A DNA stretch of 64,000 bases from an uncultured Chloroflexia bacterium (GCA_963750125.1 CAVVPT010000026.1:22059-86058), one strand, 5' to 3'. Positions 49,740 to 63,839 are shown, counted from the first letter of the stretch. Numbers and translations are program-made. Notes: generated by a model not told the origin, from the letters alone.

Positions 49740-49895
49740 GTCGGAGGACGATAGACCGCGGGTCGAGCCCTGCCAAGGGATGTTCCCGATGGAGAGCGAC
49801 GTCAAGCCGGGGGGAGCGGCCGGGACCTGGGTTCGGCCATAACGATCAGCGAGTGGCTCGACCGTTCCGTACCGGCACGAACGTGCGCGACTCGT

Positions 49896-50381
49896 TCAGC
49901 GCTGCCCGAGGAACGCCGTGAGCTGCTCGATGACGAACGCGTGGTCCTCGACCTGCGGCAGACCCGAGACCACGACCGAGCCGATGAACCCGACGCCACG
50001 TGTGCGCAGCGGGAACGCGCCGCCATGTGCCTGATAGAGATCCGGCGACAGGGTGTGGGCGGCGTGGACATCCTGGCCATCCCGATCGTGGCGCAATCGC
50101 ACCAGCAGGGAGCTCTGTTCGAAATGCTCGGTGAGGCGTGCCTTGCGCGCTGCCCACTGGTCGTTCGACGCGGTGCTGCCGGGTAGCGCGGCCACGTACA
50201 CGAGCCTGGCGCCGGCACGGATCTGGATCACGATGGGCAGCTCGCGCTCCTCGGCAGCCCTCGACATCAGGCGCCCGAGGTCCTGCAGGGACGCCAGATC
50301 GGCTTGCTTCAGGACGAGGTCGCGCTCCTGTGCCTCGAGTTCGTCGATCGATGGCCAGTTGTCGTTGTTCGGCGTCGACAT
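49896..50381 (-). CDS. Heme-degrading domain protein (UPF0303/GlcG-HbpS family)
   Basis: NDQWAARKA..SS..HGGAFPL..VSGLPQVEDH. Confidence 0.88.
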   Translation of the reverse strand: MSTPNNDNWPSIDELEAQERDLVLKQADLASLQDLGRLMSRAAEERELPIVIQIRAGARLVYVAALPGSTASNDQWAARKARLTEHFEQSSLLVRLRHDRDGQDVHAAHTLSPDLYQAHGGAFPLRTRGVGFIGSVVVSGLPQVEDHAFVIEQLTAFLGQR

Positions 50382-50410
50382 ACGCGCTCCGCGTGAGAAG
50401 GCTGGGGATC

Positions 50411-50442
50411 GGCTGGTGCGCCAGGATTCGAACCTGGAACCC
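50411..50442 (-). repeat. att site: outer copy of the tRNA-Gln 3' end
   Basis: GGCTGGTGCGCCAGGATTCGAACCTGGAACCC, one mismatch to 60629-60660. Confidence 0.88.
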
Positions 50443-50494
50443 AGCGTACCCGTGAAACATACCGCGTCAGGCGGACGAAACGGGGTATCGCCAC

Positions 50495-50812
50495 AGTCGC
50501 CCTGGACCGCTCCTCGGCTCCGTCAATGAACGCCGCGGGGATGCGTCCGCCGATCTCGATCGGCTTGTCGGCGCGTCGGCGCTCATCGAGGCGGATGGCC
50601 AGGTCCGTCATCGCGGCCAGCTCGTCCTCGCCGGTCCCGCTGATCGTCTCGGGTGCCACGCCGCGGCCGAACTGCGGCGCTCGGGCGGTGACGGCCCATC
50701 GGTGCGTGTCGGGACACCAGCAGGCTCGGCCAACGAGCCACGCATCGGGGAGGAGTCCCAGAACGTCGAGGGCGGCGCGCTCGAGCTTCGCGGGGTCGGT
50801 TATGACGGTCAT
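50495..50812 (-). pseudogene. Element-associated hypothetical gene (longest copy of the DPAK.ERAALDVL family), apparently 3'-truncated near att
   Basis: MTVITDPAKLERAALDVLGLLPDAW...GTGEDELAAMTDLAIRL; the frame runs into the att arm region. Confidence 0.6.
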
Positions 50813-51148
50813 GGCGGAACAGGGTACGGCTCGGCGCGGCCCTGTTCGATGCCCGAAGGCGGCAATCGTGCGCCCGCGTTATTGCACGATTTGCACGTCG
50901 GAACTCGGTCCCCTCATCGACGCGGCTGGCAGTCGGGACCCCCGCGGTCGCCGGTTAGCAGCGCGCATTCGATCACCTCGCGCAACTGTCTGGCACAACC
51001 CGTCCGCGGTCGTCATGATGCACGCGAGCGGAGAGAGGGGCGGGAGCCACAGGGGGGTTCCTGAGGCACGGCGTCACATCGAGCGGTCGCCCGACTCGTG
51101 CCAAATGCCAATGGCGAGACCGACCTCGTCCGTAGGAGGTTCTTGCCG

Positions 51149-51484
51149 ATGGCGCGTCGACGCATTGCACGATTCGGACTTGGTGTCACTGCAGCTACTG
51201 TGGTCCTCGCCCTGAGTGCCAGCATCGCTATGGCTGGGGAGGTGACTGGAAGTGGCGCCAATGAGAATCAAAATCAGGGGCGGTCGTGGTGTTCGTTCTC
51301 GGGACTGAATGACGATCCCACTGCCCCGCTGGACGGCTCCGGCCCGAACGGCCCCGGTGGCAAGTCGCAGTCGTTCGGGCAGGAGAACAAGTTGGGTCTC
51401 GCCGATCCGCACACGGGGAATCCTGGCGTGTTCTGCAACCCGAACAAGACACCCCTTCCTCCCCAGCCGAACCGGACGCACTGA
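51149..51484 (+). CDS. Small secreted hypothetical protein
   Basis: AGGAGG RBS, signal peptide (AMA-GEVTG), SWCSFSGLND and FCNP. Confidence 0.78.
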   Translation: MARRRIARFGLGVTAATVVLALSASIAMAGEVTGSGANENQNQGRSWCSFSGLNDDPTAPLDGSGPNGPGGKSQSFGQENKLGLADPHTGNPGVFCNPNKTPLPPQPNRTH

Positions 51485-51541
51485 CATCCTGATCGGCCCC
51501 GTCCGTCATGTCGGGGCCGGTCTTCCAACTCCCTGCGGTCC

Positions 51542-51640
51542 TTCGGACATTCGAATATCTCGACCGTCGCAGACGTTTGCGCCCGCCTGACCCCCGCGAT
51601 GCTGGAACGGTCAGCAGCGCGAATGGATTCGATCCACGAG
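51542..51640 (+). pseudogene. Tyrosine integrase C-terminal remnant
   Basis: FGHSNISTVADVCARLTPAMLERSAARMD aligns with LGHSQLATTADVYAHLNPAMLERTAARMD at ~60420-60510. Catalytic Tyr is replaced by Cys. Confidence 0.8.
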
Positions 51641-51705
51641 GGTACGGGCGAATTAGAGACCCCCGGCGGAGCGCCCGTCGGGGGTCAATTCGTGCGTGGA
51701 TGTTT

Positions 51706-51751
51706 TGGCTGGCGCGCCAGGATTTGAACCTGGAACCCCCTGATCCAGAGT
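51706..51751 (-). repeat. att site: inner copy of the tRNA-Gln 3' half
   Basis: 46 bp with one mismatch to 60628-60673, ending at the anticodon loop. The adjacent hairpin (51658-51686) is also duplicated. Confidence 0.92.
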
Positions 51752-51908
51752 TGGTCCCAGCCACGCTCAGGCTAGCACTCTGAACGTACACCGAGCCCTA
51801 GTCCGTCCATCCCGTACCCCTGAAACCTACCGGTTCGGGGGTATGAAAAGGGGTACGCTTCGGACTCGTAGCGAGTACCGGTCGCTTTTCTCAATCGGGG
51901 TACTCGCC

Positions 51909-52121
51909 GTGGCCCGACGATCGTCGCCCGACCGCGTCTACACCGCCCGACGAGCTGCCGTCCTTAGCCGGCTCACGCGGGAGCGCCGCCTGTCCGCGGA
52001 ACGGGCCGAGACGCTGGTCGCGGCGTGGGAGGTCGAGGGCGACTCTCGCGGCCTGTAGCGGATGACCGCGGGCTTCTGGGACGACGGCACGACGTGGATC
52101 GAGGAGCAGCTCGGGGCATAG
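51909..52121 (+). pseudogene. Small element-associated hypothetical gene with in-frame TAG
   Basis: VARRSSPDRVYTARRAAVLSRL...SRGL*RMTAGFWDDGTTWIEEQLGA*; stop at 52056. Confidence 0.55.
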
Positions 52122-52125
52122 GTCG

Positions 52126-52179
52126 GCCCCCGGTCGCCATTCGTCTCGCTGTCACGAGGCGAACGAGCGGAGCCGGGGC
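52126..52179. repeat. ~55-bp imperfect palindrome, copy 1
   Basis: CCCCGG-TCGC..TTCGTCTCG-CTGTCA-CGAGGCGAA..GCGGAGCCGGGG. Confidence 0.75.
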
Positions 52180-52273
52180 CGTGGTGAGGCTAGCGGCGAG
52201 CGCGTAGCTGCCGCTTGCTCGGTCATGGCGGACTTCGGTACGGGCGACGACTGACGGCCGGCACCCTGTCGAG

Positions 52274-52534
52274 CTATCCCTCTGTTAGGACCAGGAGCGT
52301 CTCGGGGTGAACACCATCGAACTTCATCGCGTCGGCTGCCTCCTGAGTCTGCATTGCCTGCTCAAACGCAGCCACGTCGGGTACCTCGACGATCAAACCG
52401 GTCCGTTTTGAACCCTGCTGATCGCGGAACGGACGAACGGTGATGCCTAGCGGCCCGAAGAGTTCCTGTCGCTTTGGTGAGCTTAGCCAGTGGTCAACGT
52501 CGTCTACATCGTGGAAGACCATTAGGGTTGGCAC
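52274..52534 (-). CDS. Small hypothetical protein (dimeric alpha-beta barrel-like)
   Basis: GGAGG RBS; VPTLMVFHDVDDVDHWL...AMKFDGV; lower GC3 than flanking core genes. Confidence 0.78.
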   Translation of the reverse strand: MPTLMVFHDVDDVDHWLSSPKRQELFGPLGITVRPFRDQQGSKRTGLIVEVPDVAAFEQAMQTQEAADAMKFDGVHPETLLVLTEG

Positions 52535-52652
52535 GGTCGACCTCCAAACCAGGTCGACGAGCGGGCCGGTCGTGATGGGACCGGCCTGCGGCTCGTCAGG
52601 TCGTTTAGGGTACCCGGCGGCAGAGCCCAAATAGACCCTCGGCCGCGGCGTC

Positions 52653-52707
52653 GCCCCGGTCGCAGTTCGTCTCGCTGTCACGACGGAGCGACGCGCGGAG
52701 CCGGGGC
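52653..52707. repeat. ~55-bp imperfect palindrome, copy 2
   Basis: GCCCCGGTCGCAGTTCGTCTCGCTGTCACGACGGAGCGACGCGCGGAGCCGGGGC. Confidence 0.75.
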
Positions 52708-52718
52708 GTCGTTCCTGT

Positions 52719-52937
52719 CTAAAACCTCGGAGTGCGGCCAGGGGCCACCGGGACATAGTCGCAGCGGCAGGTTTCATTCCCGCAGTCGGTAACAGGTATC
52801 ACGGGGGCGTGGTGGGGCTCGAACACATTCCCCAGCAATGCGCGACAGACGAGGCACGCATCGGGTGCTGCATAGAACTCGACCAGCGCGCCGTGCTCGA
52901 TGGCGTGGTTGGTCGTCTTCTGAACGTGCGGGTCCAC
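52719..52937 (-). CDS. Small Cys-rich hypothetical protein
   Basis: CLVC...P.IP...C....CRC. TACACT -10-like box upstream. Confidence 0.65.
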   Translation of the reverse strand: MDPHVQKTTNHAIEHGALVEFYAAPDACLVCRALLGNVFEPHHAPVIPVTDCGNETCRCDYVPVAPGRTPRF

Positions 52938-53010
52938 GTTGTGCCCTGTGACGGCCGGCCCCTAGGCGAGTGTACGCCCCCGCACGACGACCCTAACGGA
53001 CGCGCGGGCC

Positions 53011-53118
53011 GTCGGTGTCGCGCGTTCCAGGCCGCGCGTGATGGACATTGCCCGCAGCGTGTAGCGGGGCCCGCTCGCGTCCTGCCTCCCCCCAAGGGCC
53101 GTGTCGCGCCGCGGGCCC
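53011..53118. repeat. Structured non-coding repeat, diverged partial copy
   Basis: Shares GTCGCGCGTTCCAGG and GGGCCCGC...AGGGCCGT...GCGGGCCC with the two long copies. Confidence 0.65.
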
Positions 53119-53243
53119 TACCACGAGGCCAACAACCGAAACGCACCCGTGGGCGGCGTTACGGCCGTCGAGATTCCCCGTGGCGAGACACATCGTCAGC
53201 CGTCTCGGTTCGTCGCGCATCCTGCAAAGAGCCCATTTCTTCG

Positions 53244-53464
53244 CCATTGCGCGCGAACGTCTCGACAGCGCGCGTATGGTGGGTGAGGCTTCCGTCGACA
53301 CGGCGGTGCGCGACGGTGACCGTTCGAGGGGGTCGGCGTCGCGCGTTCCAGGGCCGCGCCCGACGGCTATTCGAGGGACCCTGCCGCCAGGGCCCGCACA
53401 CGTCCGTCCTTACCCCTCAGGGCCGTTCGCGTTGCGGGCCCCGCCCTACGTTTAGTCAGTCATG
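53244..53464. repeat. ~220-bp structured non-coding repeat, copy 1
   Basis: Colinear similarity with 54643-54868. Confidence 0.88.
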
Positions 53465-53513
53465 TCAAGACGTCGAGGGCGGCGCGCTCGCGCTTCGCGG
53501 GATCAGTCGGCAT
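53460..53513 (-). repeat. DPAKRERAALDVL motif copy B (mini-ORF MPTDPAKRERAALDVLT)
   Basis: Direct translation; abuts the 220-bp repeat. Confidence 0.75.
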
Positions 53514-53534
53514 TCGTCCGGGTGCCGCAAGCAG

Positions 53535-54098
53535 TCATGGAGCCATCCGCCCATTTGCGCGCTCACTGCCGATGACCGTCGCGGTCCGGTAGGCGATCTC
53601 GGACACCTTGAACACGTACCAGAGGAACAGGTCGCGGAGCAGCGCCCGACCTAGCGGCCGCATCTTGTTCAGGCGCTCGGTCTTCTCCTTGTCGGGGTGG
53701 AAGAGGTCGCCGTACAGGAACAGGTCAACCGCCTCCTGCGGTGTCACTTCCTTTGCACCGATGTTTACGGCAACGCCGCTGCTCTTCCTGATCTGATCGA
53801 GTCCGGCCTCCGCGTCGGCGATGGCCTGTAGCGCGACAGCGTCAGTCAGGTGTTTCCTGCAGTCGGCGAATATCTTCGGGAGGTAGACGTCATCCTGCGC
53901 GAGCGTGAACGGTCGAACGTCCATCACGAACGAGCGCAACCGGTGAAATTCAGGCTCGTCCAGGTCGTGAGTCGGACCCCTGGCGTTCAGGGTGATCGTG
54001 AGGCTCGGACTCAACGAGTGCACGTCGTGATCGAGGATGATCCGATCTACCGCGTCCTCGAAGAGAGCCAGCCGCTCCGCAGAGGTCCGCTTGATCAT
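53535..54098 (-). CDS. Hypothetical protein (island cargo)
   Basis: 187-aa ORF with protein-like composition; LRSFVMDVRPF and LYGDLFHPD. Confidence 0.75.
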   Translation of the reverse strand: MIKRTSAERLALFEDAVDRIILDHDVHSLSPSLTITLNARGPTHDLDEPEFHRLRSFVMDVRPFTLAQDDVYLPKIFADCRKHLTDAVALQAIADAEAGLDQIRKSSGVAVNIGAKEVTPQEAVDLFLYGDLFHPDKEKTERLNKMRPLGRALLRDLFLWYVFKVSEIAYRTATVIGSERANGRMAP

Positions 54099-54186
54099 CT
54101 GATCGCAGGCGGCACGAGCCGGATTCTCGACCGGTCGACCTCGACGAGCCCGCAGTCGACGAGCGTGCTGATCGCCCGGGCCATCG

Positions 54187-54234
54187 AGTGGCGCTGAGCA
54201 TTGGGCGGCCAGTGGCGCTGAGCATTGGGCGGCC
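54187..54234. repeat. Exact 24-bp tandem duplication
   Basis: AGTGGCGCTGAGCATTGGGCGGCC twice. Confidence 0.9.
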
Positions 54235-54243
54235 AGCTCGTCG

Positions 54244-54633
54244 TCAATCCTCGGGGAAGCGCTTCGTCTGGGTCTGTTGATACCGCTCGCGAGCGGCGTC
54301 CTCCGCTACGTGCGCGCGTTCCTCAACCGCATCAGCCGTAACCGCAGCACCCTCAGCGGTCGCGAACGCCAGTCGAGCTGCCGCGGCGGCCTGGGTGGCG
54401 GCCTCTCTGGCCTGAGCTGCCGCACTGCGCGCGTGTTCGGCTGCCTCCACCGCGGCTGTCGCGGCGGCGTCGACCTCACGGGCGGCCTCCTCGGCGGCGG
54501 TCGCCGCAGCCAATGCCAATTGAGCGACCTTCGACGCGGTATGCGAGGCGACCGTATCGCGTTCGGCAGCTCGCCAATCCGAGAGCAAGTCGCTGGGTGG
54601 TGTTGGCTCGGGCGGACCTGGTCGTCGCTCCAA
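54244..54633 (-). CDS. Ala-rich coiled-coil hypothetical protein
   Basis: GGAGG RBS; LLSDWRAAERD followed by an Ala/Glu-rich helix. Confidence 0.7.
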   Translation of the reverse strand: MERRPGPPEPTPPSDLLSDWRAAERDTVASHTASKVAQLALAAATAAEEAAREVDAAATAAVEAAEHARSAAAQAREAATQAAAAARLAFATAEGAAVTADAVEERAHVAEDAARERYQQTQTKRFPED

Positions 54634-54642
54634 GCGAAGCCT

Positions 54643-54868
54643 CCATTGTGAGCGAACGTCATGACAGCGGGCGTACGGTGGGTGAGGGCTACCGTCGACA
54701 CATCGCTGCCAGACGGTGACTGTTCGAGGGGGTCAGCGTCGCGCGTTCCAGGGTCGCGCCCGTCGGTTATTCCCGGGACCCTGCCACCAGGGCCCGCGCA
54801 CGTCCGTCCTTTACCCCCAGGGCCGTTTGTGTTGCGGGCCCCGGCCCTCCGAATCTTAGTCAGTCATG
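54643..54868. repeat. ~220-bp structured non-coding repeat, copy 2
   Basis: Colinear similarity with 53244-53464. Confidence 0.88.
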
Positions 54869-55082
54869 CAAGTCGTCGGTACGCGTTCGTACAATCTCTA
54901 CACACGAACGACGATGACCGCCACGTGGGGCCGTTCAACGGCCGCTGGCGCGGGTTCTCGGTGATCCTCCGGAGCCACCCGCAGCTACTGACGCCGGCTG
55001 GTTCGGCGCACCTCGGTCGTCGGGCATCGAGGACCCTGACGGCAATCGCGTGGAATTGTTTCAGGCCTGAGAGGGCGGCCTC

Positions 55083-55151
55083 CTACCGCGGGTCCGGGAG
55101 CAGCGCTAGAACGTCGAGCGCGGCGCGTTCACGCTTTGCAGGGTCGGTCAC
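55083..55151 (-). repeat. DPAKRERAALDVL motif copy C (mini-ORF VTDPAKRERAALDVLALLPDPR)
   Basis: Direct translation; GACGAT lies 6 nt upstream of the GTG. Confidence 0.75.
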
Positions 55152-55210
55152 GCGTGTATCGTCGGCCCTCGTCCTGAAAATGGGCGAGGGCCGATGACGT
55201 TGTCTCGGCG

Positions 55211-55909
55211 TCAGGCCGCGATCGCGCACTTGAAGCCGAAGCTGAGTGTGCCCCGATGTATCACCGCAAACCCGTCGGGATCGCCTGCCTCCAGCGGTTG
55301 GCCATCGGCGGTGCCCGCGAACATCGCATTGCGTTCCGTGCCCCGGGAGCTTTCGCGGGAGATGCAGACGCCGTCGTCGAAGACGCTGCGGAATGACGAG
55401 CGGGTCGCAGCCGAGGTCGCCGTGAACGTGCCTTCGACCGAGATCTCGCGCGTCTCCCCGGTCGGGGCGCATTCGATCGCGTCACAGACGATGGCTTCGA
55501 GGGTGATCGTCGCCGGCGCGATGGTCGCCGAGCTCAGGTCGCGCTCGATGACAGTTCCCTCGCCCAGGTCCATGGTGCAGCCGGACTCTCCGGTGAAGCT
55601 CAAGGTCTCGCCCGTCTCCTCGTTGAAGACGTCGGTGAATGTCCCGTAGCACACCTCCGTCCCATGGATTGCGCCAGACCCCTGTTCTCTGCTCTTCCCG
55701 GAGACGAGAGAGATGTTGCGGGAACTGCAGGTCACGATGTCATCCACGGGGTCGCTGCAGGTGCCTGCGTCGGCGAACGCCGAGAAGCCGCTGTTCGAGA
55801 ACTTGAAGACCTCTATCGGTTTGGCCGCGAGCGACGTCGCGGCTGCCAGCGGCAGCAGCAGCACGACGAGGGCCACCGCAGCGACGGTGCGGCGAAGACG
55901 TCCAGCCAT
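55211..55909 (-). CDS. Secreted hypothetical protein with several Cys
   Basis: AGGAGG RBS; signal peptide (SLA-AKP). Confidence 0.78.
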   Translation of the reverse strand: MAGRLRRTVAAVALVVLLLPLAAATSLAAKPIEVFKFSNSGFSAFADAGTCSDPVDDIVTCSSRNISLVSGKSREQGSGAIHGTEVCYGTFTDVFNEETGETLSFTGESGCTMDLGEGTVIERDLSSATIAPATITLEAIVCDAIECAPTGETREISVEGTFTATSAATRSSFRSVFDDGVCISRESSRGTERNAMFAGTADGQPLEAGDPDGFAVIHRGTLSFGFKCAIAA

Positions 55910-56139
55910 GGACCACCTCCTGGGGCTCCGCCGGCAACTGCCGGCACAGCCGAGGTCGGTCTCGCCATTGGCTCGGCGCGTTCCACGGCGACCAGTTTCA
56001 GGGACCGCGCGTCGTCGCCCCCCTCGACGTGGGTAACGTACCTCGTGGCCAGGCCAAGCGCGACTCGGAATTGCGCGTTTGGCAGCCTTCCGATGTAGCA
56101 AATGCTCGCGACCTAGCCCGATCTATCCCTCGGGGTCGT

Positions 56140-56210
56140 AGGAGGTCGGCCCACCACTCGGGGAGCAGGGCCAGGACTTCGAGGGCAACGCGCTCGCGCT
56201 TTACGGGAAG
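56140..56210 (-). repeat. DPAKRERAALDVL motif copy D
   Basis: LPVKRERVALEVLALLPEWW. Confidence 0.7.
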
Positions 56211-56484
56211 CCCGCAGCGTCGAACCAAGCGATCGGGCCGGCTACACCCGCTCGGAGCATCGCCCGCGCTGGCGGAAGTCTGGGTCATCACACGGGTGGC
56301 GAAGCAGATCACCGGGACGAGGGAGCTGATCGACCACCGATGAACCGTTACGACCGCATCCTTGAGGTGGTCCGCGAGACGCGCGAGGCCAACGAGCAAC
56401 TCATTGCCGCCATGGCCTATATCGAGGTGCCGACATCCACCTCATGCGTAACGCGGCCGCAGGCGCCGCCCGCGGGTCATGGGA

Positions 56485-57312
56485 TCAGGGTTCGATCTGG
56501 ATTGAGTCCACGATCGCCGCGAGTTGGGCTTGGACCTGTGCGGTCGTGCCGGGGAAGCTGTCTCTCCGGACCACCATACGGACCCCGTCGACATCGAGGA
56601 CCCAGATGCGCCACAGAGCGTTCGGCCCCTGGGCGTAGATCCCAGGCTCCCACACGAAGTAGTAGTTGCACCCACCAGGATCCGGTCCCAGCTCGTCGGT
56701 AGTGGTGTTCGCGGGCGCCCGGAGCTCCAGGTACTGCCCCGAGTACCCGCCCAGGATGACGTCCACGGGACTCGTGACGTCGAGGTCAGGATGATCCACG
56801 AGCGCGGTCACGAACTCGTCGACGGTCGTGCCGGTCGGGATGGTCGGCCCGTTGTCGTTGCCTGGCCCCGCACAAAGCTTGGAGTACAACCAGCCGCCAC
56901 GACCGATGACCAGACCCGCTCCCCCAGGTGGCAAGTAACTCTCGACGGCTCGAATAATTGTGCCGCCGAGCCCTGCCCAGCCAGCGGGGACCGTGAGCGT
57001 GACGCGAATGGAATCGTCCTCCGCGCCCGCTTCAATGCAGCCAGCCTGCAACGACTCCGCCACGCACAGACCACCGCTGCCCACGAACGGCTGGATCGTG
57101 TAGGTACCCGCCGCCAGAGGGCCGTCGAGGATCCGGGCTGGCGAGGGACTGGGTGATGGCGATTTCGATGGCGACGGGGTCGGCCCTGGTGAGCTCGTCG
57201 TCGGCGTCGGAGCCGCAGACGCCGGGGCAGCGGCCCCGGTGGCGACGCCTTGCCCCGTCGCACAACCGGCGATGGCGAACACGACGAGGACGGTTGCGAA
57301 CATGCGCTTCAT
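56485..57312 (-). CDS. Lipoprotein with Pro/Ser linker
   Basis: Lipobox IAGC; LAAGTY, TVPAGW, WVLDVDG and IVDSIQI. Confidence 0.82.
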   Translation of the reverse strand: MKRMFATVLVVFAIAGCATGQGVATGAAAPASAAPTPTTSSPGPTPSPSKSPSPSPSPARILDGPLAAGTYTIQPFVGSGGLCVAESLQAGCIEAGAEDDSIRVTLTVPAGWAGLGGTIIRAVESYLPPGGAGLVIGRGGWLYSKLCAGPGNDNGPTIPTGTTVDEFVTALVDHPDLDVTSPVDVILGGYSGQYLELRAPANTTTDELGPDPGGCNYYFVWEPGIYAQGPNALWRIWVLDVDGVRMVVRRDSFPGTTAQVQAQLAAIVDSIQIEP

Positions 57313-57498
57313 CTGGCGCCTCCGGGCAAGCGGGCAGTGGTAGTAGATGGATGCCGGCCGGGGCTACGAGGTTCGGGGACAGGCGTCACACGGACGCACT
57401 GAACCGGCCTGTCTCCAGCGGCATCTGGACACCTGACAGCAGCGATCGACGGCGACATCGCGGCGAGCGATCGCTAGGATCGGTGACCCGAGGGTGAG

Positions 57499-58092
57499 AT
57501 GAGTGCCCTGACGAGAGCGGCGACGGCGACGACTTTGGGGGACGACGCCCTCGTTCGTCGCGCTCGCACCGGCGATGCGACGGCGTTCGGGGTCCTCGTC
57601 GACACCCGGATCGATCGCTGCTACCGCCTCGCCTGGTCGATCCTGTCCAACGACGCCGACGCAGCCGACGCCACGCAGGACGCGCTCCTGGCAGCGTGGC
57701 GACAGCTCCCGCGCCTGCGCGATGCGGCGGCGTTCGACGGCTGGCTCAACCGGATCGTCGCCAACGCGGCGCTGATGGCCCGCAGGCACCGGCTCCGCCT
57801 GCGTGAGGTGTCGGTTACGCCGATCCATCCTGGCGATACGCTGCAGGAGCCCGAACCGCCGCCGGACCTTCGCGCAAGGACGGCATACGACGACGTCGTC
57901 GACAACGACGCGATCGGGCGCGGCTTCGACCACCTGCGGCCGCAGGACCGGATGATCCTCGTCCTCCACCACGTGGACGAGCGACCGGTCGCCGAGATCG
58001 CGCGGTCGTTGGGGATCCCGGCCGGAACCGTCAAGTCACGGCTGCATGCCGCCCGAATCGCGCTCGAGAAGGCGATGGAGGCCGAGCGATGA
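57499..58092 (+). CDS. ECF RNA polymerase sigma factor
   Basis: DATQDALLAAW, FDGWLNRIVAN and LGIPAGTVKSRLHAA. Confidence 0.92.
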   Translation: MSALTRAATATTLGDDALVRRARTGDATAFGVLVDTRIDRCYRLAWSILSNDADAADATQDALLAAWRQLPRLRDAAAFDGWLNRIVANAALMARRHRLRLREVSVTPIHPGDTLQEPEPPPDLRARTAYDDVVDNDAIGRGFDHLRPQDRMILVLHHVDERPVAEIARSLGIPAGTVKSRLHAARIALEKAMEAER

Positions 58093-59924
58093 ACGCCCCA
58101 CGCCTGACCGACGAGCAGGTCTCCCAGGCGCTTCGGGCCCACCTCCCGGACGGCGCCCAGGCCGGTCTGCGCGAGCGGATCCTCGAAGCAGCCGAGACGA
58201 CAAGCCAGCAGCGGGCGCTGCCCTCGTTCCTTGGTGCTCTCCGCGACGCAGACCCGGTCACCCGCCGACGGAGCCTGCTCATCGCCGCCGCGCTGCTGGT
58301 GGCACTTGCCCTCGCGGCGACCGCGGCCGTCGGGGCGTTGCGTGTCCTTGAGCGGGACCCCGTCGAGCGCCTGAGCCTCGAGCCACCGACCGTACCCAGC
58401 CCCGCGGTCACCACGCTGCCCGGACCGTCCACCGAACCATCGAGTCCACCGGTCGCCGAGACCCCCAGCCCACCGGTCGCCGATCGATACCAGGCTCTGG
58501 TCGCTCGGTCCGATGCTGACGGCACCGCCATCGTCGCCGTACGCGGCGATCGGCAGGAACGCGTCATCGTCACCTTCCCCCGAAGTGAACGGGAAGAAGT
58601 TGGATTGAAGCTTCTGTCCGCGGACGGCTGGCTCGTGATGTTCTACCGGGACGGGACGGAGTTCATCGACCTCCGCGATCCATCACGTCCGCCTCGCCCG
58701 TTCTCGATGGATGAGAACGTGACGGGCTTTTCATGGCACCCGGATGGCCGGTTCGCAGCCTGGGACGCGAGCGGGGTCGCGACGCTCATCGACCCCCAGA
58801 CCGGCGCGGAGACGCCGTTCAGAATGCGGGGCCCGGTGGGCAACTTCGTCGGATGGGCGGCAGACGGATCGGCGCTGGTCGCCTACAGCGACGGTGCCGA
58901 TGGCATCTACGGCCAAGGCGAGCTGGTGGCCGATGCGGCGTGGCGGGTGATCCGCCTCGACGGTGGCCCCGACGAGACCTCCTTCCCTGATCTGTACCCT
59001 GAGCTGGTTTCGTTCGGCCAATATGGCCGGGGAGGCGCGCGGTTGCAGCTGTGCGACCCACCGCAAGTGGACACGTCGGCGTCAGGTGACGGCCCAGGTG
59101 ACTGCCCTGACATGCCCATCGGCGCCGTGGTCGGCAAGGCTCCCGAAGGGAAGGTCACGATCTGGTACGGCGACGAGCTCGCTCCCGATACGGTTCACGA
59201 CGCGAGCTTCGGCGGCGATGGGACCGGGATGTGGCTCGTGCTCGATCGTCGGGTGGGAGGCCGGCAGCTCGCCCTCGCCCGCGTCGACGCACCGGGCGCC
59301 GCTCGGGTCGTGGCCGCAGCCGGGCTACCGGCCGCCGAGTACGATCCCTTCGAGATCCGTGGCGTCGCGCCCGACGACTCGCTCATCGCCATCGACGCGT
59401 CCGGGCTCGTCCTGGTCGAGCCGAGCACCGGACGGGTGACGCCGGTCGATGGAGGGTTCGTGGGCTTCATCCCATCAGCGAGCGCGGACACGTGGGCCGG
59501 ACAGCCGTTCCAGCCCGTCGAGCCGATTGCGTCGCTCGAGCCGGTTCTTCCCGCCTACCCGACGTTGCCCTCCATCGACGACTACTTGGTCGCCAACCAA
59601 CTCTCCCCTGGCGACCGCGAACTCGCGCGCCAGGAGTCCGTCGCCGTCGAGGGTTCGGCCGGGGCGGCTTCGACGACCGAGATCGGACCTCTCAAGCTCA
59701 AGACGGGGCTTGGCGTCGTGCTCATCTGCAGCGGCCCGTCAGACGTGCTCGTCACGATGGAACCCGACGGCCCGTTCATGCCGCTGCGGGCCAGCTGCGA
59801 TAGCGGCGTCAGCTTCGGGGGCCAGGCCCCGTCGGTGTCGATCAATGCCTCGGCCACGTTCGTCGTCACGGGGAGCACGGATACGTCGTGGCAGCTGGTG
59901 ATCTGGGACCCTGCTCCGGAGTGA
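58089..59924 (+). CDS. Membrane-anchored protein with extracytoplasmic beta-propeller, putative anti-sigma factor
   Basis: ATGA overlap with the sigma gene, one TM helix and WHPDG/WAADG/APDD repeats. Confidence 0.78.
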   Translation: MNAPRLTDEQVSQALRAHLPDGAQAGLRERILEAAETTSQQRALPSFLGALRDADPVTRRRSLLIAAALLVALALAATAAVGALRVLERDPVERLSLEPPTVPSPAVTTLPGPSTEPSSPPVAETPSPPVADRYQALVARSDADGTAIVAVRGDRQERVIVTFPRSEREEVGLKLLSADGWLVMFYRDGTEFIDLRDPSRPPRPFSMDENVTGFSWHPDGRFAAWDASGVATLIDPQTGAETPFRMRGPVGNFVGWAADGSALVAYSDGADGIYGQGELVADAAWRVIRLDGGPDETSFPDLYPELVSFGQYGRGGARLQLCDPPQVDTSASGDGPGDCPDMPIGAVVGKAPEGKVTIWYGDELAPDTVHDASFGGDGTGMWLVLDRRVGGRQLALARVDAPGAARVVAAAGLPAAEYDPFEIRGVAPDDSLIAIDASGLVLVEPSTGRVTPVDGGFVGFIPSASADTWAGQPFQPVEPIASLEPVLPAYPTLPSIDDYLVANQLSPGDRELARQESVAVEGSAGAASTTEIGPLKLKTGLGVVLICSGPSDVLVTMEPDGPFMPLRASCDSGVSFGGQAPSVSINASATFVVTGSTDTSWQLVIWDPAPE

Positions 59925-59939
59925 TGACGAGCGGGGGCG

Positions 59940-60001
59940 CGGCACTCCGCGAGCAGGGCTAGGACGACTAAAGCGGCGCGCTCTCGCTTCGAGGGGTCGC
60001 T
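59940..60001 (-). repeat. DPAKRERAALDVL motif copy E
   Basis: SDPSKRERAALVVLALLAE; abuts the integrase remnant. Confidence 0.72.
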
Positions 60002-60002
60002 C

Positions 60003-60581
60003 CAGGCCGTTGAGGGCGATCGCTTCGAAGCGCTGTACGTTGCCGCCATTGGGCTCGGGCTGCGCCGGGGCGAGCCGCTCGGGCTCCGCTGGTCCGATCT
60101 TGACCTTGAAGCGGGGACCGTGACCGTCCGCTATTCGCTATCGCGCGGGACGCGCACGCTGGCGGAGCCGAAGACGGAACGGTCCCGCCGCACCCTTCGG
60201 ATCCCCGGTGCCGTCGTAGACGCACTGCGAGAGCATCGGCGTCGGCAGCTCGAAGAGCGGATCGCTGCCGGCCCGCGCTGGGTTGACGAGGGCTACGTCT
60301 TCGCGACGCATCAGGGCCGGTCCCTGATGGCTAGGAACGTTCAGGGGTTCCATGGTCTCCGCCATTGCTACGCGACGCTGATGCTCGAGGATGGCGAGGA
60401 GCTGGCCGTCGTGAGTCGGACCCTCGGCCATTCGCAGCTCGCGACCACGGCCGATGTCTACGCGCATCTGAACCCGGCCATGCTCGAGCGGACGGCCGCC
60501 CGGATGGATGGCGTCCTGACCCCGTCACAAGAGGGCGTTGGGCGCCTGACGGTGGTACGGCAGGTGGTACGGGCGAATTAG
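60003..60581 (+). pseudogene. Tyrosine integrase catalytic-domain remnant (N-terminus lost, internal deletion)
   Basis: GLRRGE..GLRW.D.D, EPKT, FHGLRH, LGHS and ADVYAH. The segment between ARNV and FHGLRH is missing. Confidence 0.9.
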
Positions 60582-60582
60582 A

Positions 60583-60610
60583 GACCCCCGGCGGATGCCC
60601 GTCGGGGGTC
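60583..60610. terminator. Hairpin between integrase and tRNA 3' end
   Basis: GACCCCCGGCGG-ATGC-CCGTCGGGGGTC. Confidence 0.75.
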
Positions 60611-60627
60611 ATTTCGTGCGTAGATTT

Positions 60628-60702
60628 TGGCTGGCGCGCCAGGATTCGAACCTGGAACCCCCTGATCCAGAGTCAGGTGCTCTACCGTTGAGCCACGCGC
60701 CA
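60628..60702 (-). tRNA. tRNA-Gln (anticodon CUG)
   Basis: TGGCGCG..CCTGA CTCTGGA TCAGG..GGTTCGAATCC..CGCGCCAGCCA cloverleaf with encoded CCA. Confidence 0.96.
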
Positions 60703-60749
60703 GCGGTGCCGTACGGCGTGGTCGAGTCTACCGCCCACCGCCGGGCGCC

Positions 60750-61163
60750 TCAACCGTCGCCTCGGCCAACCCCCGGTGGCGGCGTCCCGACCCACGTCAC
60801 CAGCTGGATCACGATGCCGTTCGGGTCGCAAACCTGGAAGTAGCGTTCGCCCCACGGCTCGGTCTCGATCGGGGTCGTGATCTCGATACCCTCCGCCTCG
60901 AGCCGCGCGTATTCGGCGTCCACGTCGTCGACGACGAAGACGAGGAGCAGACCGTCGGCGTGGTGACCACGGAGATGCTCCGGTTTGAAGGTCGTCAGAC
61001 CGGTGCGCAGGTAAATAACGTTCATGCCCACGTCGAGGCGCGACAGCGAGACGAACCCGTCGGTGGCCATCTCCTCGACAAACCCGAAGTGGCGGACCAG
61101 GAACTCAGCGGATGATCGTTCGTTCGAAACGTTCAGCGAGACCGCCGAGGACGTGATGTTCAT
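60750..61163 (-). CDS. VOC/glyoxalase family protein
   Basis: FVVDDVDAEY..EPWGERYF..DPNGIVIQL. Confidence 0.9.
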   Translation of the reverse strand: MNITSSAVSLNVSNERSSAEFLVRHFGFVEEMATDGFVSLSRLDVGMNVIYLRTGLTTFKPEHLRGHHADGLLLVFVVDDVDAEYARLEAEGIEITTPIETEPWGERYFQVCDPNGIVIQLVTWVGTPPPGVGRGDG

Positions 61164-61195
61164 CGTGCCTCCAGGCGGTGATCGCCTGTGGTTTG

Positions 61196-62872
61196 CTACT
61201 GCCGCGCCTGGACCTTGGCCCACGTGTCCTTGAGCGTCAGCGTCCGGTTGAACACGATCTTGCCTGGCCGTGAGTCGGGATCAGCCGCGAAGTAGCCGAG
61301 GCGCTCGAACTGGACCGTCTCGCCGGGTTGCGCGTCGACGAGTGACGGCTCCACGAACGCCCCCCCGACCACGGTCTCCGAATTCGGGTTCAAGTCGGCG
61401 AGCTGATCGTCGGCCGCGCCCGGATCGGCCCGCGTGTAGAGGTGGTCATAGAGGCGCACCTCGGCAGGAACGGCGCTCGCGGCCGAGACCCAGTGGAGCG
61501 TCGCCTTCGGCCGGCGGCCGTCCGGGGCGTCGCCGCCCCGCGTCCGTGGATCGTATGTGCAGCGCAGCTCCACGACTCGACCCGAGGCCTCCTTCACGAC
61601 CTCCTGGCACGTAATGAAGTACGCCGCCCGGAGGCGCACTTCGCGGCCGGGTGCGAGCCGGAAGAACTTCGGGGCGGGCTCTTCCATGAAGTCGTCGCGC
61701 TCGATCCACAACTCCCGCCCGAATGGAACGCGCCGCGTCCCGGCGGCGGAGTCCTCCGGGTTGTTCGGGACCTCCACTTCTTCGATCCGGCCATCGGGAT
61801 AGTTGTCGATGACGACCTTGATCGGGTCGAGCACGCCAAACCGCCGCTGCGCGGTTCGGTTGAGGACCGATCGCACTGCGTGCTCGAGCAGCGCGTACTC
61901 GATCACGCTGTCCGTCTTGGTGACACCCACCATTTCCGCGAAATCGCGGATGCCCTCCGCCGGGAAGCCGCGGCGGCGCAGGCCGGAGATCGTCGGCATG
62001 CGCGGGTCGTCCCAGCCGCGAACCCGGCCCTCGTCGACGAGCCGGAGCAGGAATCGCTTCGACAGCACGGTGAACGTCAGGTTGAGCCGGGCGAACTCGT
62101 ATTGCCGCGGCCGCGAGGGGACCGGGAGGTGCTCGATCAACCAGTCGTAGAGCGGCCGGTGCGCCTCGAACTCGAGCGTGCAGATCGAATGGGTGACGCC
62201 CTCGATTGCGTCCGACTGGCCGTGCGCGAAGTCGTACGTCGGGTAGATGCACCACGTGTCGCCGGTCCGCGGGTGCGCGGCGTGGACGATGCGATACAGA
62301 ACCGGGTCGCGCAGGTTGATGTTCGGTGATGTCATGTCGATCCTTGCGCGGAGCACGCGGGCGCCGTTGGGAAACTCGCCGGTGCGCATCCGCGCGAACA
62401 GGTCGAGGTTCTCCTCGACCGGGCGATCGCGGTACGACGAGTTGCGACCAGGCTCGGTCAGCGTGCCGCGATGTTCGCGGATCTCTTCGGCCGACAGGTC
62501 GTCGACGTAGGCGTCGCCGTTTCGAATCAGATGAACGGCCCAGTCGTAGAGCTGCTCGAAGTAGTCGGATGCATGGTGCAGGTGCTCGCCCCAGTCGAAG
62601 CCGAGCCAGCGGATATCGCGCTCGATGGCGTCGATGTACTCCTGCTCCTCCTTGACCGGGTTCGTGTCGTCGAAGCGGAGATGGCAGCGGCCGCCGAAGT
62701 CGCGCGCGATGCCGAAGTTCAGGCTGATCGACTTGGCATGGCCGATGTGCAGATAGCCGTTCGGCTCTGGCGGAAAGCGGGTGACGATCGTCGAATTGCG
62801 CCCGCTTCGAACATCCGCGGCGACGATCTCGCGGATGAAGTCGGCGCGCTCGGGGGGAGTCTCGATGCTCAA
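61196..62872 (-). CDS. glnS: Glutamine--tRNA ligase
   Basis: [39 protein letters not shown] and QFERLGYF. Confidence 0.96.
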
Positions 62873-62951: not shown

Positions 62952-63839
62952 TCAACCGGCCTTGAACCGCTCCACGAGCGCGAGGTCCTGCTCCGCCTCG
63001 TGGTAGGCGATGTTCCTGCGCGACGCCTCCGCGATGGCGGCCCGGTGGAAGAACGCGGCGGCATCGAGGTCGCGCTTGAAGAACATGATGTTCCCGAGAC
63101 CGTTGAGCGCCTCGTAGCCGGTCGGGTCGAGCGCGAGCGTCTCGAGGAACCGCTTCTCCGACTCGTCGAGGAGCGGATCGCGCGGCGCGCGCCAGGCCTG
63201 GATGGCGTCCCAGTACTTGATCATGTAGGCGTTCTTGAGGTGGTAGCCGGTCAGGTTGACGAGCATCGGGTCGAGCGGCCACGACGCAACCGCGGCATCG
63301 ACGACTGGATCCAGGGCAGCCTGATCGCGCGCAGCCGTGGCGAGGTCTCCGGCCCCCACCAACTCAAGGATTGCCGCCTGCGACCTGCCGATGCGATCGC
63401 TGGCCGCCGCCAGCTCCGGACCCTGGTAGCTCAACGCCGGCGCCAGCCGGTTCGAGCCCTTCGGCGATTTGCGGATGGCGCGCGCGAGGTCGGCGACGAC
63501 CTCCTTTGTGACGCGCTGGATCTTGAGCCGGACGCTGCCCTGGAGGCACTGCGGCAGCGGCGTCGCGTCGAGCGAGCACGGGATGATGAAGCGCTGCACG
63601 TGATAGGCGGTCAGCCATTCGGTGGCGACCCAGCGCGACGTTGCGGCTTCCTCCGACCAGAGCAGCACGAGGACACGAGCGGCCCGGATCGAGCCCTGCA
63701 GCTCCTCGCCAAGCAGGATGCCCAGCCGGATCTCGGAATCGTCCAGCCAGATGCTCAGCCCGTCTGCCTCCAGGGCCTTCTCGATCCGCAGCGCGACGTT
63801 CCGGTTGGCCGACGAGTGGCTGACAAACGCGTCGGTCAC
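62952..63839 (-). CDS. TIR domain protein with C-terminal TPR-like helices
   Basis: AFVSHSS..IWLD..LWS....SRWVATE..IIP, followed by LALDP..ALNGLGNI. Confidence 0.85.
   Translation of the reverse strand: MTDAFVSHSSANRNVALRIEKALEADGLSIWLDDSEIRLGILLGEELQGSIRAARVLVLLWSEEAATSRWVATEWLTAYHVQRFIIPCSLDATPLPQCLQGSVRLKIQRVTKEVVADLARAIRKSPKGSNRLAPALSYQGPELAAASDRIGRSQAAILELVGAGDLATAARDQAALDPVVDAAVASWPLDPMLVNLTGYHLKNAYMIKYWDAIQAWRAPRDPLLDESEKRFLETLALDPTGYEALNGLGNIMFFKRDLDAAAFFHRAAIAEASRRNIAYHEAEQDLALVERFKAG

Follow-up and report, generated by a model that had tools for sequence, protein, structure and literature searches.

Five co-oriented 5′ fragments of an undescribed small gene in a bacterial tRNA-Gln island most likely record repeated insertion and decay

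Layout of the tRNA-Gln island

The window analysed here is a 64,000-nt stretch of an uncultured Chloroflexia bacterium, taken from a metagenome-assembled genome (G000; 28 contigs, 3.5 Mb, estimated 66% complete) of a high-G+C host found in soil metagenomes. Between its tRNA-Gln gene and the core genome, five ~60-nt coding motifs lie in one orientation on the minus strand. All five are 5′ ends of a single small gene, for which we use the working name SG (nucleotide model of 366 positions), and represent fragments from diverged lineages of that gene. A first-pass annotation had reported the five recurrences, and a repeat search, the translations and a genome-wide profile all bear them out. The repeat search of the window returned one 63-nt family in five direct copies (50738-50800, 53445-53507, 55086-55148, 56151-56213 and 59939-60001), the others being 67–78% identical to the first; a profile of the five copies, run against the whole 3.5-Mb genome, scored the window copies at E values of 2.5e-15 to 5.1e-14, far beyond chance. 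The SG copies are listed below with the attachment (att) repeats, integrase remnant and tRNA gene of the island.

50407..50455: att repeat 3, holding a tRNA-Gln 3′ fragment (50411-50442; 32 nt, 96.9%), at the distal island end, followed by core genes
50495..50812, minus strand: SG copy A, the longest in the window, model nt 1-313 of 366, 3′ end lost
51641..51751: att repeat 2, a displaced tRNA-Gln 3′ fragment (51706-51751) with an integrase 3′ remnant (51641-51703, ~60 nt)
53460..53513, minus strand: SG stub B, MPTDPAKRERAALDVLT followed by a stop; SG likeness ends after GACGTCTTG (model nt 45), where the repeat M6 starts
55083..55151, minus strand: SG stub C, 22 codons with a GTG start; likeness ends near model nt 60
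56130..56213, minus strand: SG stub D, model nt 10-95, frameshifted by 1 nt and lacking an evident start codon
59939..60002, minus strand: SG stub E, model nt 3-64, flanked by the truncated integrase and the anti-sigma gene's 3′ end
60045..60581, plus strand: 5′-truncated tyrosine integrase remnant, PF00589 positions 31-170 only, its 3′ end toward the tRNA 3′ end
60566..60673: att repeat 1, the tRNA-Gln 3′ part (60628-60673) with the integrase 3′ end
60628..60702, minus strand: tRNA-Gln(CTG), the integration target, attL side (ARAGORN; Rfam tRNA 69.9 bits)

Att repeats 1 and 2 share 93.7% identity over 111 nt, and the integrase remnant is recognized on a 153-aa open reading frame (ORF; Pfam E 4e-9). 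Because three copies of the tRNA 3′ end and a 5′-truncated integrase are present, the island comprises at least two tandem elements. Element 1 (51751-60628) contains stubs E, D, C and B, that is, four SG 5′ stubs inside one att-bounded segment, and element 2 (50455-51703) contains copy A; att repeat 2 marks the boundary between them. Att repeat 3 is the oldest tRNA-Gln 3′ fragment of the island, and the orthologous flank in two relatives (G003 and G002) begins at this repeat. The three tRNA-Gln 3′-end repeats and the integrase remnant uphold the earlier description of the locus as an accretion site. No conjugation or mobilisation genes were seen in the window island.

Read from the tRNA, the order is integrase remnant, E, the anti-sigma and ECF sigma genes on the other strand, a lipoprotein gene and D; then a riboswitch with a secreted-protein gene and terminator, C, an oppositely oriented short gene remnant and a copy of M6; then an Ala-rich protein, a 187-aa protein, B, and the modules M6, M5, M4 and M3. 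Beyond this first M3 lie a 167-aa ORF, a second M3, M2 and the att repeat.

On the minus strand, the copies translate as TDPAKLERAALDVLGLLPDAW... (A), TDPAKRERAALDVLT and a stop (B), VTDPAKRERAALDVLALLPDPR and a stop (C), LPVKRERVALEVLALLPEWWA... (D) and SDPSKRERAALVVLALLAE... (E). The first-pass statement that all copies but the first lose likeness within a few codons of VLALLP needs correction: D, read through its 1-nt frameshift, extends beyond VLALLP to ...GPTSYDP. A is itself incomplete, lacking the family's last ~17 codons, with an open frame that runs into a tRNA-Gln 3′ fragment. B and C retain ATG/GTG starts and form ORFs of 17 and 22 codons with unchanged residues, reaching stops 1 and 2 codons past the end of SG likeness. 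Stub E carries three residue changes and is antisense to the 3′ end of the anti-sigma gene.

The ancestry of the stubs can be traced at codon level. Across codons 3-15, B and C differ by 9 nt in 8 of 13 codons, every difference being synonymous, as had been noted for this pair, and the stubs therefore derive from diverged functional genes. Among longer SG copies, differences split 47/91/425 over codon positions 1/2/3, so the N-terminus was under protein-level constraint. Together, the split and the synonymous-only pair confirm the proposed origin from different protein-coding ancestors. Each window stub is nearer to a paralogue elsewhere than to its neighbouring stubs; stub C, for example, is 89.8% identical to an SG copy at C10:121505.

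SG and its tRNA islands across the genome and its relatives

The five-copy profile found 21 sites at E<0.01 in the genome, 16 of them outside the window set, on contigs C6, C8, C10, C22 and C25. A combination of tblastn and the full-length nucleotide model revealed full, frameshifted, stop-bearing and truncated SG copies over six contigs. The model search, run with loose filters, did not pick up stub B; the ends of stub B and of two copies on C10 (C10_134442 and C10_121614) were read from other sequence comparisons. Two intact copies occur in G000, encoding 121 aa (MTDPAKRERAALDVL...RVSKRYP). Among 41 genomes searched (G000 and 40 relatives), 9 gave SG matches, some with several fragments, and wider scans added one distant locus among genome contigs and 14 short metagenome contigs. 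On one of the latter (L031, 852-1048), SG carries a clean internal deletion of model nt 83-250 with a 2-nt microhomology joint, an example of ordinary deletion inside the gene.

The SG protein had no match in Pfam, NCBIfam, PHROGs or PADLOC, and in the ESM Atlas it fell only into unnamed clusters (0.85-0.86). A large protein collection held 195 relatives at E<=0.001, the best 120 of which have no Pfam domain and no name but hypothetical protein. An AlphaFold model built with 37 sequences (predicted local distance difference test, pLDDT, 91.2) has a predicted alpha-beta-beta-beta-alpha topology, with a helix at residues 4-17 that corresponds to the motif itself, three strands, a long helix at 61-104 and a short helix. 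The best solved folds were double-stranded RNA-binding domains (dsRBDs) and HPF/YfiA (Z 6.0-6.7; Foldseek E>=5.5e-3), a middling likeness of the model that is too weak for a function to be assigned.

SG is tied to tRNA islands: almost all of the roughly 21 copies, many of them broken, lie in islands that have tRNA 3′-end repeats at their borders. The 24 SG pieces in G000, which fall in ~10 islands and are thus not independent of each other, lie at a median of 4.0 kb from the nearest tRNA. Within 5 kb of a tRNA we found 14 of 24 pieces against 10% of 20,000 random positions, and within 10 kb 22 of 24 against 18%, so the linkage of the motif to tRNA islands is strong. Fragments of 45 nt from tRNA 3′ ends bound SG-bearing islands of 1.2 to 17.8 kb at tRNA-Arg (C6), tRNA-Leu-taa, tRNA-Val-tac and tRNA-Leu-caa (C10), tRNA-Pro (C25) and tRNA-Gln. 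Modules M2-M6 travel with SG in the G000 islands. The better-preserved distal arm runs SG, M3, a 147-aa membrane gene in some cases, M2 and the att fragment; this arm recurs, ~1 kb from att, at C10:159-160 kb and, minus M3, at C10:120-121 kb. On C6, SG also lies ~1 kb from the distal att, and no modules were detected between them. Integrase remnants occupy the tRNA-proximal end and are read toward the tRNA.

The locus is hypervariable among relatives. In G003, of the same genus, with flanks about 88% identical, an 11.4-kb island extends from tRNA-Gln to a 48-nt tRNA fragment and shares only SG, M3 and att pieces with the window island; of its three SG copies, all in one orientation, one is a stub of 45 nt that reads in frame into a lipoprotein ORF. 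G002 and G004 belong to the same genus and share the flanks too: in G002 the island measures 3.7 kb and contains one SG piece, from the 3′ end, and in G004 about 5 kb lie at the site and SG is absent. Synteny is lacking in G005, and no GlnRS match was obtained in G001 (69% complete). Cargo order is thus not invariant among relatives, and the differing islands of G003, G002 and G004 indicate that content at the tRNA-Gln site turns over quickly. Just outside the island, between tRNA-Gln and glnS, a glyoxalase/VOC gene (60750-61223, minus strand) is present in G002 and absent at the orthologous G003 and G004 sites, and one public contig joins 60705 to 61206, skipping this gene. Beyond glnS lies a TIR-domain protein (62952-63839, minus strand; PF13676 E 1e-18) with weak PADLOC matches to ThsB-like and SAVED-TIR models.

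The modules and cargo of the window island are as follows.

51044..51484, plus strand: element 2 cargo, a riboswitch-like sub-threshold match (51044-51134, 34.8 bits) and a 128-aa small protein
51905..52222: modules M2 and M3, the conserved distal arm adjoining att repeat 2
52653..52707: second copy of M3, core only
52728..53239: modules M4 and M5, both recurring in other SG islands
53240..53450: M6 copy 1, a ~200-nt repeat that abuts stub B
53535..54633, minus strand: cargo between C and B, a 187-aa protein (53535-54098) and an Ala-rich 129-aa protein (54244-54633)
54643..54878: M6 copy 2, ~200 nt
55211..56031, minus strand: cargo between D and C, a riboswitch (55945-56031), a secreted-protein gene and a terminator hairpin
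56485..59924, both strands: cargo between E and D, a lipoprotein (56485-57312, minus), an ECF sigma factor (57499-58092, plus) and a putative anti-sigma factor (58089-59924, plus)

M2 is a helical-looking 71-aa ORF (51843-52058, plus strand) and M4 a 72-aa Cys-rich ORF (52719-52937, minus strand; CxxC...CxxxxCxC), neither with a library match. M3 is a ~100-nt hairpin repeat (GGCCCCGG...CCGGGGCC conserved) with window copies at 52119-52222 and 52653-52707. It has ~20 copies in G000, is co-oriented with SG and often starts at or just after a stop codon. Beyond G000 it was found in one relative and one unrelated metagenome contig (L015 6729-6822, 9545-9636, 10572-10663 and 13776-13876; L034 about 1690-1800). 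M3 could be a terminator, a repetitive extragenic palindrome (REP)-like element or a small mobile element; it was rejected as a validated RNA, with no pair showing compensatory change in 12 copies and no Rfam match. M6 occurs in 8 copies of 83-86% identity, has no match in Rfam, and is found elsewhere in G000 at C10:115197-115402, 142498-142707, 208083-208284 and 137918-137994. Two M6 copies sit directly downstream of tRNA-Leu genes on C10, and an att-bounded 1.2-kb mini-island (C10:207942-209162) consists only of M6, SG and M3.

The sequence at 55945-56031 is a c-di-GMP-II-GAG riboswitch (RF03169; 67.5 bits against a gathering threshold of 40, model 1-86 of 86). Its riboswitch-gene-terminator unit has paralogues at C25:42757-43774 and C6:168682-169540, keeping its own boundaries in all three copies, of which only two are followed by SG. 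The 187-aa and Ala-rich 129-aa proteins had no family match in Pfam, NCBIfam, PHROGs or PADLOC. The first-pass description of the cargo as unrelated needs qualification: segments 51905-53450 and 54643-54878 are modules also present in other SG-bearing G000 islands, and the riboswitch unit likewise recurs at other loci. Stub C is immediately followed by a ~27-aa C-terminal remnant (about 54985-55068, plus strand and hence opposite to SG; ...GIEDPDGNRVELFQA, then a stop), which may be the end of a glyoxalase/VOC protein. The ECF sigma gene with the first ~300 nt of the anti-sigma gene (57418-58387) has a 79% paralogue at C5:3978-4948, ~2 kb from tRNA-Arg(ccg), a tRNA that also has short 3′-end repeats downstream.

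Origin of the stubs

The array is best explained, at a probability of about 0.6, by related tRNA-integrating islets that accreted in tandem and were then eroded by deletions; the repeats most likely record repeated insertion and decay and not a new gene-capture machine. SG would be a backbone gene of small islets that integrate into tRNA 3′ ends. Such an islet would be laid out as tRNA, integrase read toward it, cargo and SG read away from the tRNA, and past SG as M3, in some a 147-aa membrane gene, M2 and a tRNA 3′ fragment. Related islets would have integrated successively at tRNA-Gln in the same orientation, each stub standing for one separate acquisition, and the integrases, internal att sites and most of each SG would later have been lost through deletion and rearrangement. 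The remainder would be retained cargo split by co-oriented SG stubs, the stubs being scars and not working parts. Short stubs may form as deletions erode a dispensable SG from within, with ends beside retained neighbours lasting longest; the many frameshifted copies suggest that SG is dispensable after integration. Besides the 5′ stubs, short 3′-terminal fragments (model nt 307-364) recur in the full-length model search, and the presence of both ends fits interior-first erosion. Accretion with decay accounts for the att repeats, the integrase remnant, co-orientation, the separate ancestry of the stubs and turnover among relatives.

Several observations weigh against this account. Stub ends are clustered at both DNA and protein level, which simple random erosion does not predict, and arrays in which a stub precedes a fuller copy would be predicted more directly by insertion at the SG 5′ end than by erosion. 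The most complete window copy sits in the oldest element, and SG orientation is not uniform in every island, being inverted at C25:50733 and C10:134-135 kb. The 66%-complete genome yielded no intact islet in which an integrase of this type is whole, and the backbone layout is therefore pieced together from remnants.

Only the clustering of stub ends is left unexplained by ordinary decay. Counted on DNA, 14 stubs terminate short of nt 100; they come from this genome, G003 and metagenome contigs. Four of them break off at exactly nt 45, directly behind GACGTCCTG (B, L015, L034a and C10:121.6 kb), six at nt 48-60, with C and E among them, and four at nt 82-94, including D. The 62 partial SG proteins from metagenomes comprise 17 true stubs, 12 frameshifted copies and 33 that are undecidable; the true stubs end at aa 32-40 (6), 76-88 (6) and 98-107 (5), and none of the 17 ends at aa 41-75, a gap within which two G000 copies do end (model nt 169 and 198). 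Truncation points are thus not random, and form several clusters and not one site. The first-pass proposal of recombination at or near the gene start is not supported in that form: ends cluster in several places and 3′-terminal SG fragments exist too, a picture that suits erosion of a dispensable gene from inside as well as capture at its start.

These clusters keep alive a reading in which the SG 5′ end is a preferred recombination site, or landing pad, where cargo would attach at, or immediately behind, GACGTCCTG (nt 37-45), or else around nt 82-105; we regard it as unlikely, though worth retaining. The route would be site-preferential break-and-join, or Campbell-type insertion of DNA carrying its own SG 5′ segment, leaving a stub upstream of cargo and a fuller SG copy downstream, which amounts to the earlier platform minus IntI and attC. 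Such stub-then-fuller, co-oriented arrangements recur at C10:121.6 kb, C10:134-135 kb, L015, L028 and L032, and together with the clustering of ends they are the reason for keeping the possibility in view. The clusters are shared by this genome, G003 and unrelated metagenome contigs and proteins, and the four stubs that break right after the 9-mer count as independent on this reading. A 5′-truncated SG copy opens exactly at the same 9-mer in G000 C8 and in G002, counted as one event since the junction is identical, and three M6 copies start with GACG[T/A]CT[T/C]G, each behind a different left flank. In many SG copies GACGTCCT, present at 0.15 per kb genome-wide, is found twice in a stretch of 41 nt. 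Past the breaks the stubs have no sequence in common, which would place any specificity on the SG side, and in two cases (L015 and P0121) a stub continues in frame into a lipoprotein gene. Yet no single crossover emerges: ends spread over nt 45-105 with further clusters besides, and M3 is joined to SG at four distinct points, about nt 222-243. The SG motif shows neither a hairpin nor any further structure, none of the stubs is linked to a candidate recombinase, and reciprocal products are rare. Islands totalling 53 kb contain the 9-mer GACGTC[CT]T[GCA] 21 times, mostly within SG, and it is not enriched at other module boundaries. The short 3′ fragments and the L031 deletion show that ordinary decay acts as well, and many stubs may share descent, which makes the count of independent events uncertain. 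Short public contigs from Logan (4 runs from 4 studies, placed on 49800-61300 at 90% likeness) were compared for excision or circular junctions; the joints touching SG, such as 50653 to 53470 and 50800 to 52159, are out of register or match paralogue arrangements. That the first ~100 nt of SG form a recombination hotspot for cargo uptake, served by a recombinase or break-and-join activity in trans, is a tentative proposal that we doubt.

Retention of the stubs as expressed 17-22-aa peptides forming the SG N-terminal helix, or as portable start regions for cargo, is most improbable. The intact starts and unchanged residues of B and C would suit it, as would the coincidence of the motif with the predicted helix 4-17 and the in-frame fusion of the SG start to a lipoprotein signal peptide in G003 and one metagenome protein. 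However, D is frameshifted with no evident start, E has residue changes and lies antisense to the anti-sigma 3′ end, and B and C run into stops and therefore start no cargo ORF. No RNA run containing the stretch was found. Translational fusion as a general role of the stubs was rejected: only 3 longer proteins with the SG N-terminus were found, two being over-called upstream ORFs and one a real fusion. A misjoining of repeats during assembly deserves hardly any credence, even though the genome is a fragmentary 28-contig assembly and repeated modules crowd the region. Identity between the stubs and any other copy is only 67-90%, too great a divergence for collapse, and contigs from soil-metagenome runs of different studies, one of which may be the source sample, bridge the junctions. 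An independent contig, X10 record 11 (54992-55195), spans stub C with 0 differences, and X5 record 31 (59592-60199) and X1 record 7 (58376-60094) span stub E, while X10 53444-53678 covers stub B through into the neighbouring gene; no bridging contig for stub D was among the Logan contigs listed. The order is therefore no assembly artefact, at least at those junctions.

Comparison with known systems and implications

The integron-like platform proposed for this array did not hold up on the integron features tested, given the lack of a motif hairpin and of IntI and the multi-gene, two-strand cargo, some of it modules that recur at other loci. As in integron arrays, co-oriented 50-95-nt repeats punctuate varied cargo, and a stub lies just downstream of a co-oriented gene (the 187-aa gene before B, the secreted-protein gene before C, the lipoprotein gene before D). 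Unlike integron repeats, those in the window are coding fragments with synonymous divergence; folding of motif DNA from all five copies on both strands gave z values of -1.10 to +1.02 against shuffles, with no attC-like structure. The only recombinase in the island is the 5′-truncated tyrosine integrase, at 32 bits against the 265-bit cut-off of the IntI model TIGR02249. Units between stubs hold 1-3 genes on both strands with their own regulation and terminators, one having its own riboswitch and terminator, and gene debris is present. In the orphan-module arrays that lie behind polymorphic toxin genes of contact-dependent inhibition (CDI) and Rhs systems, the end of a conserved region continues in frame into a variable toxin domain and an immunity gene follows. 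The window resembles these in having short conserved coding fragments in one orientation before differing sequences, but its fragment is an N-terminus, and a polymorphic-toxin orphan array was ruled out by B and C, which stop within a few codons (1 and 2) past SG likeness.

Closer parallels exist among tRNA-targeting elements, tRNA-site accretion with decay being an already known kind of system. In the parts of PMC5704250 drawn on here, integrative and conjugative, integrative and mobilizable and cis-mobilizable elements (ICEs, IMEs and CIMEs; Streptococcus thermophilus ICESt1 relatives) follow an accretion-and-decay model. Successive segments are delimited by direct repeats of the 3′ end of the target gene, an integrase remnant lies beside the tRNA with the newest element nearest to it, the interior decays and content varies between relatives, all as in the window. 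That model, to the extent covered by those parts, differs in that the four extra repeats within one att segment here are protein-gene 5′ stubs and not att, that the SG/M3/M2 backbone is undescribed, and that the window island lacks visible conjugation or mobilisation genes. In Prochlorococcus tycheposon islands, successive tRNA integrations leave fragmented integrases and partial tRNAs (bioRxiv 10.1101/2020.12.28.424599). The portion of that account used here describes small cargo-bearing elements that target several tRNAs per genome, with repeated integration displacing older elements deeper and integrase and tRNA fragments scattered in islands, which matches our observations; here, in contrast, the host is high in G+C, no tycheposon replication module was seen, and the recurring gene stub has no counterpart in the portion of the description considered.

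The islet family, SG, M3 and M6 are undescribed in the libraries searched and in these portions of the accretion, CIME and tycheposon literature, and the SG protein has no searchable name. The locus points to a family of small islets, so far undescribed, that target tRNA genes in an uncultured bacterium of high G+C. Their signature gene SG, with its predicted alpha-beta3-alpha fold, and the repeats M3 and M6 are usable to delimit such islands in metagenome-assembled genomes, and the case shows in detail that the look of a cassette array can arise from accretion plus erosion. If the clustered ends were to reflect site preference, they would represent a new route of gene capture, and an SG hotspot would make this a gene-capture array punctuated by stubs of a protein-coding gene.

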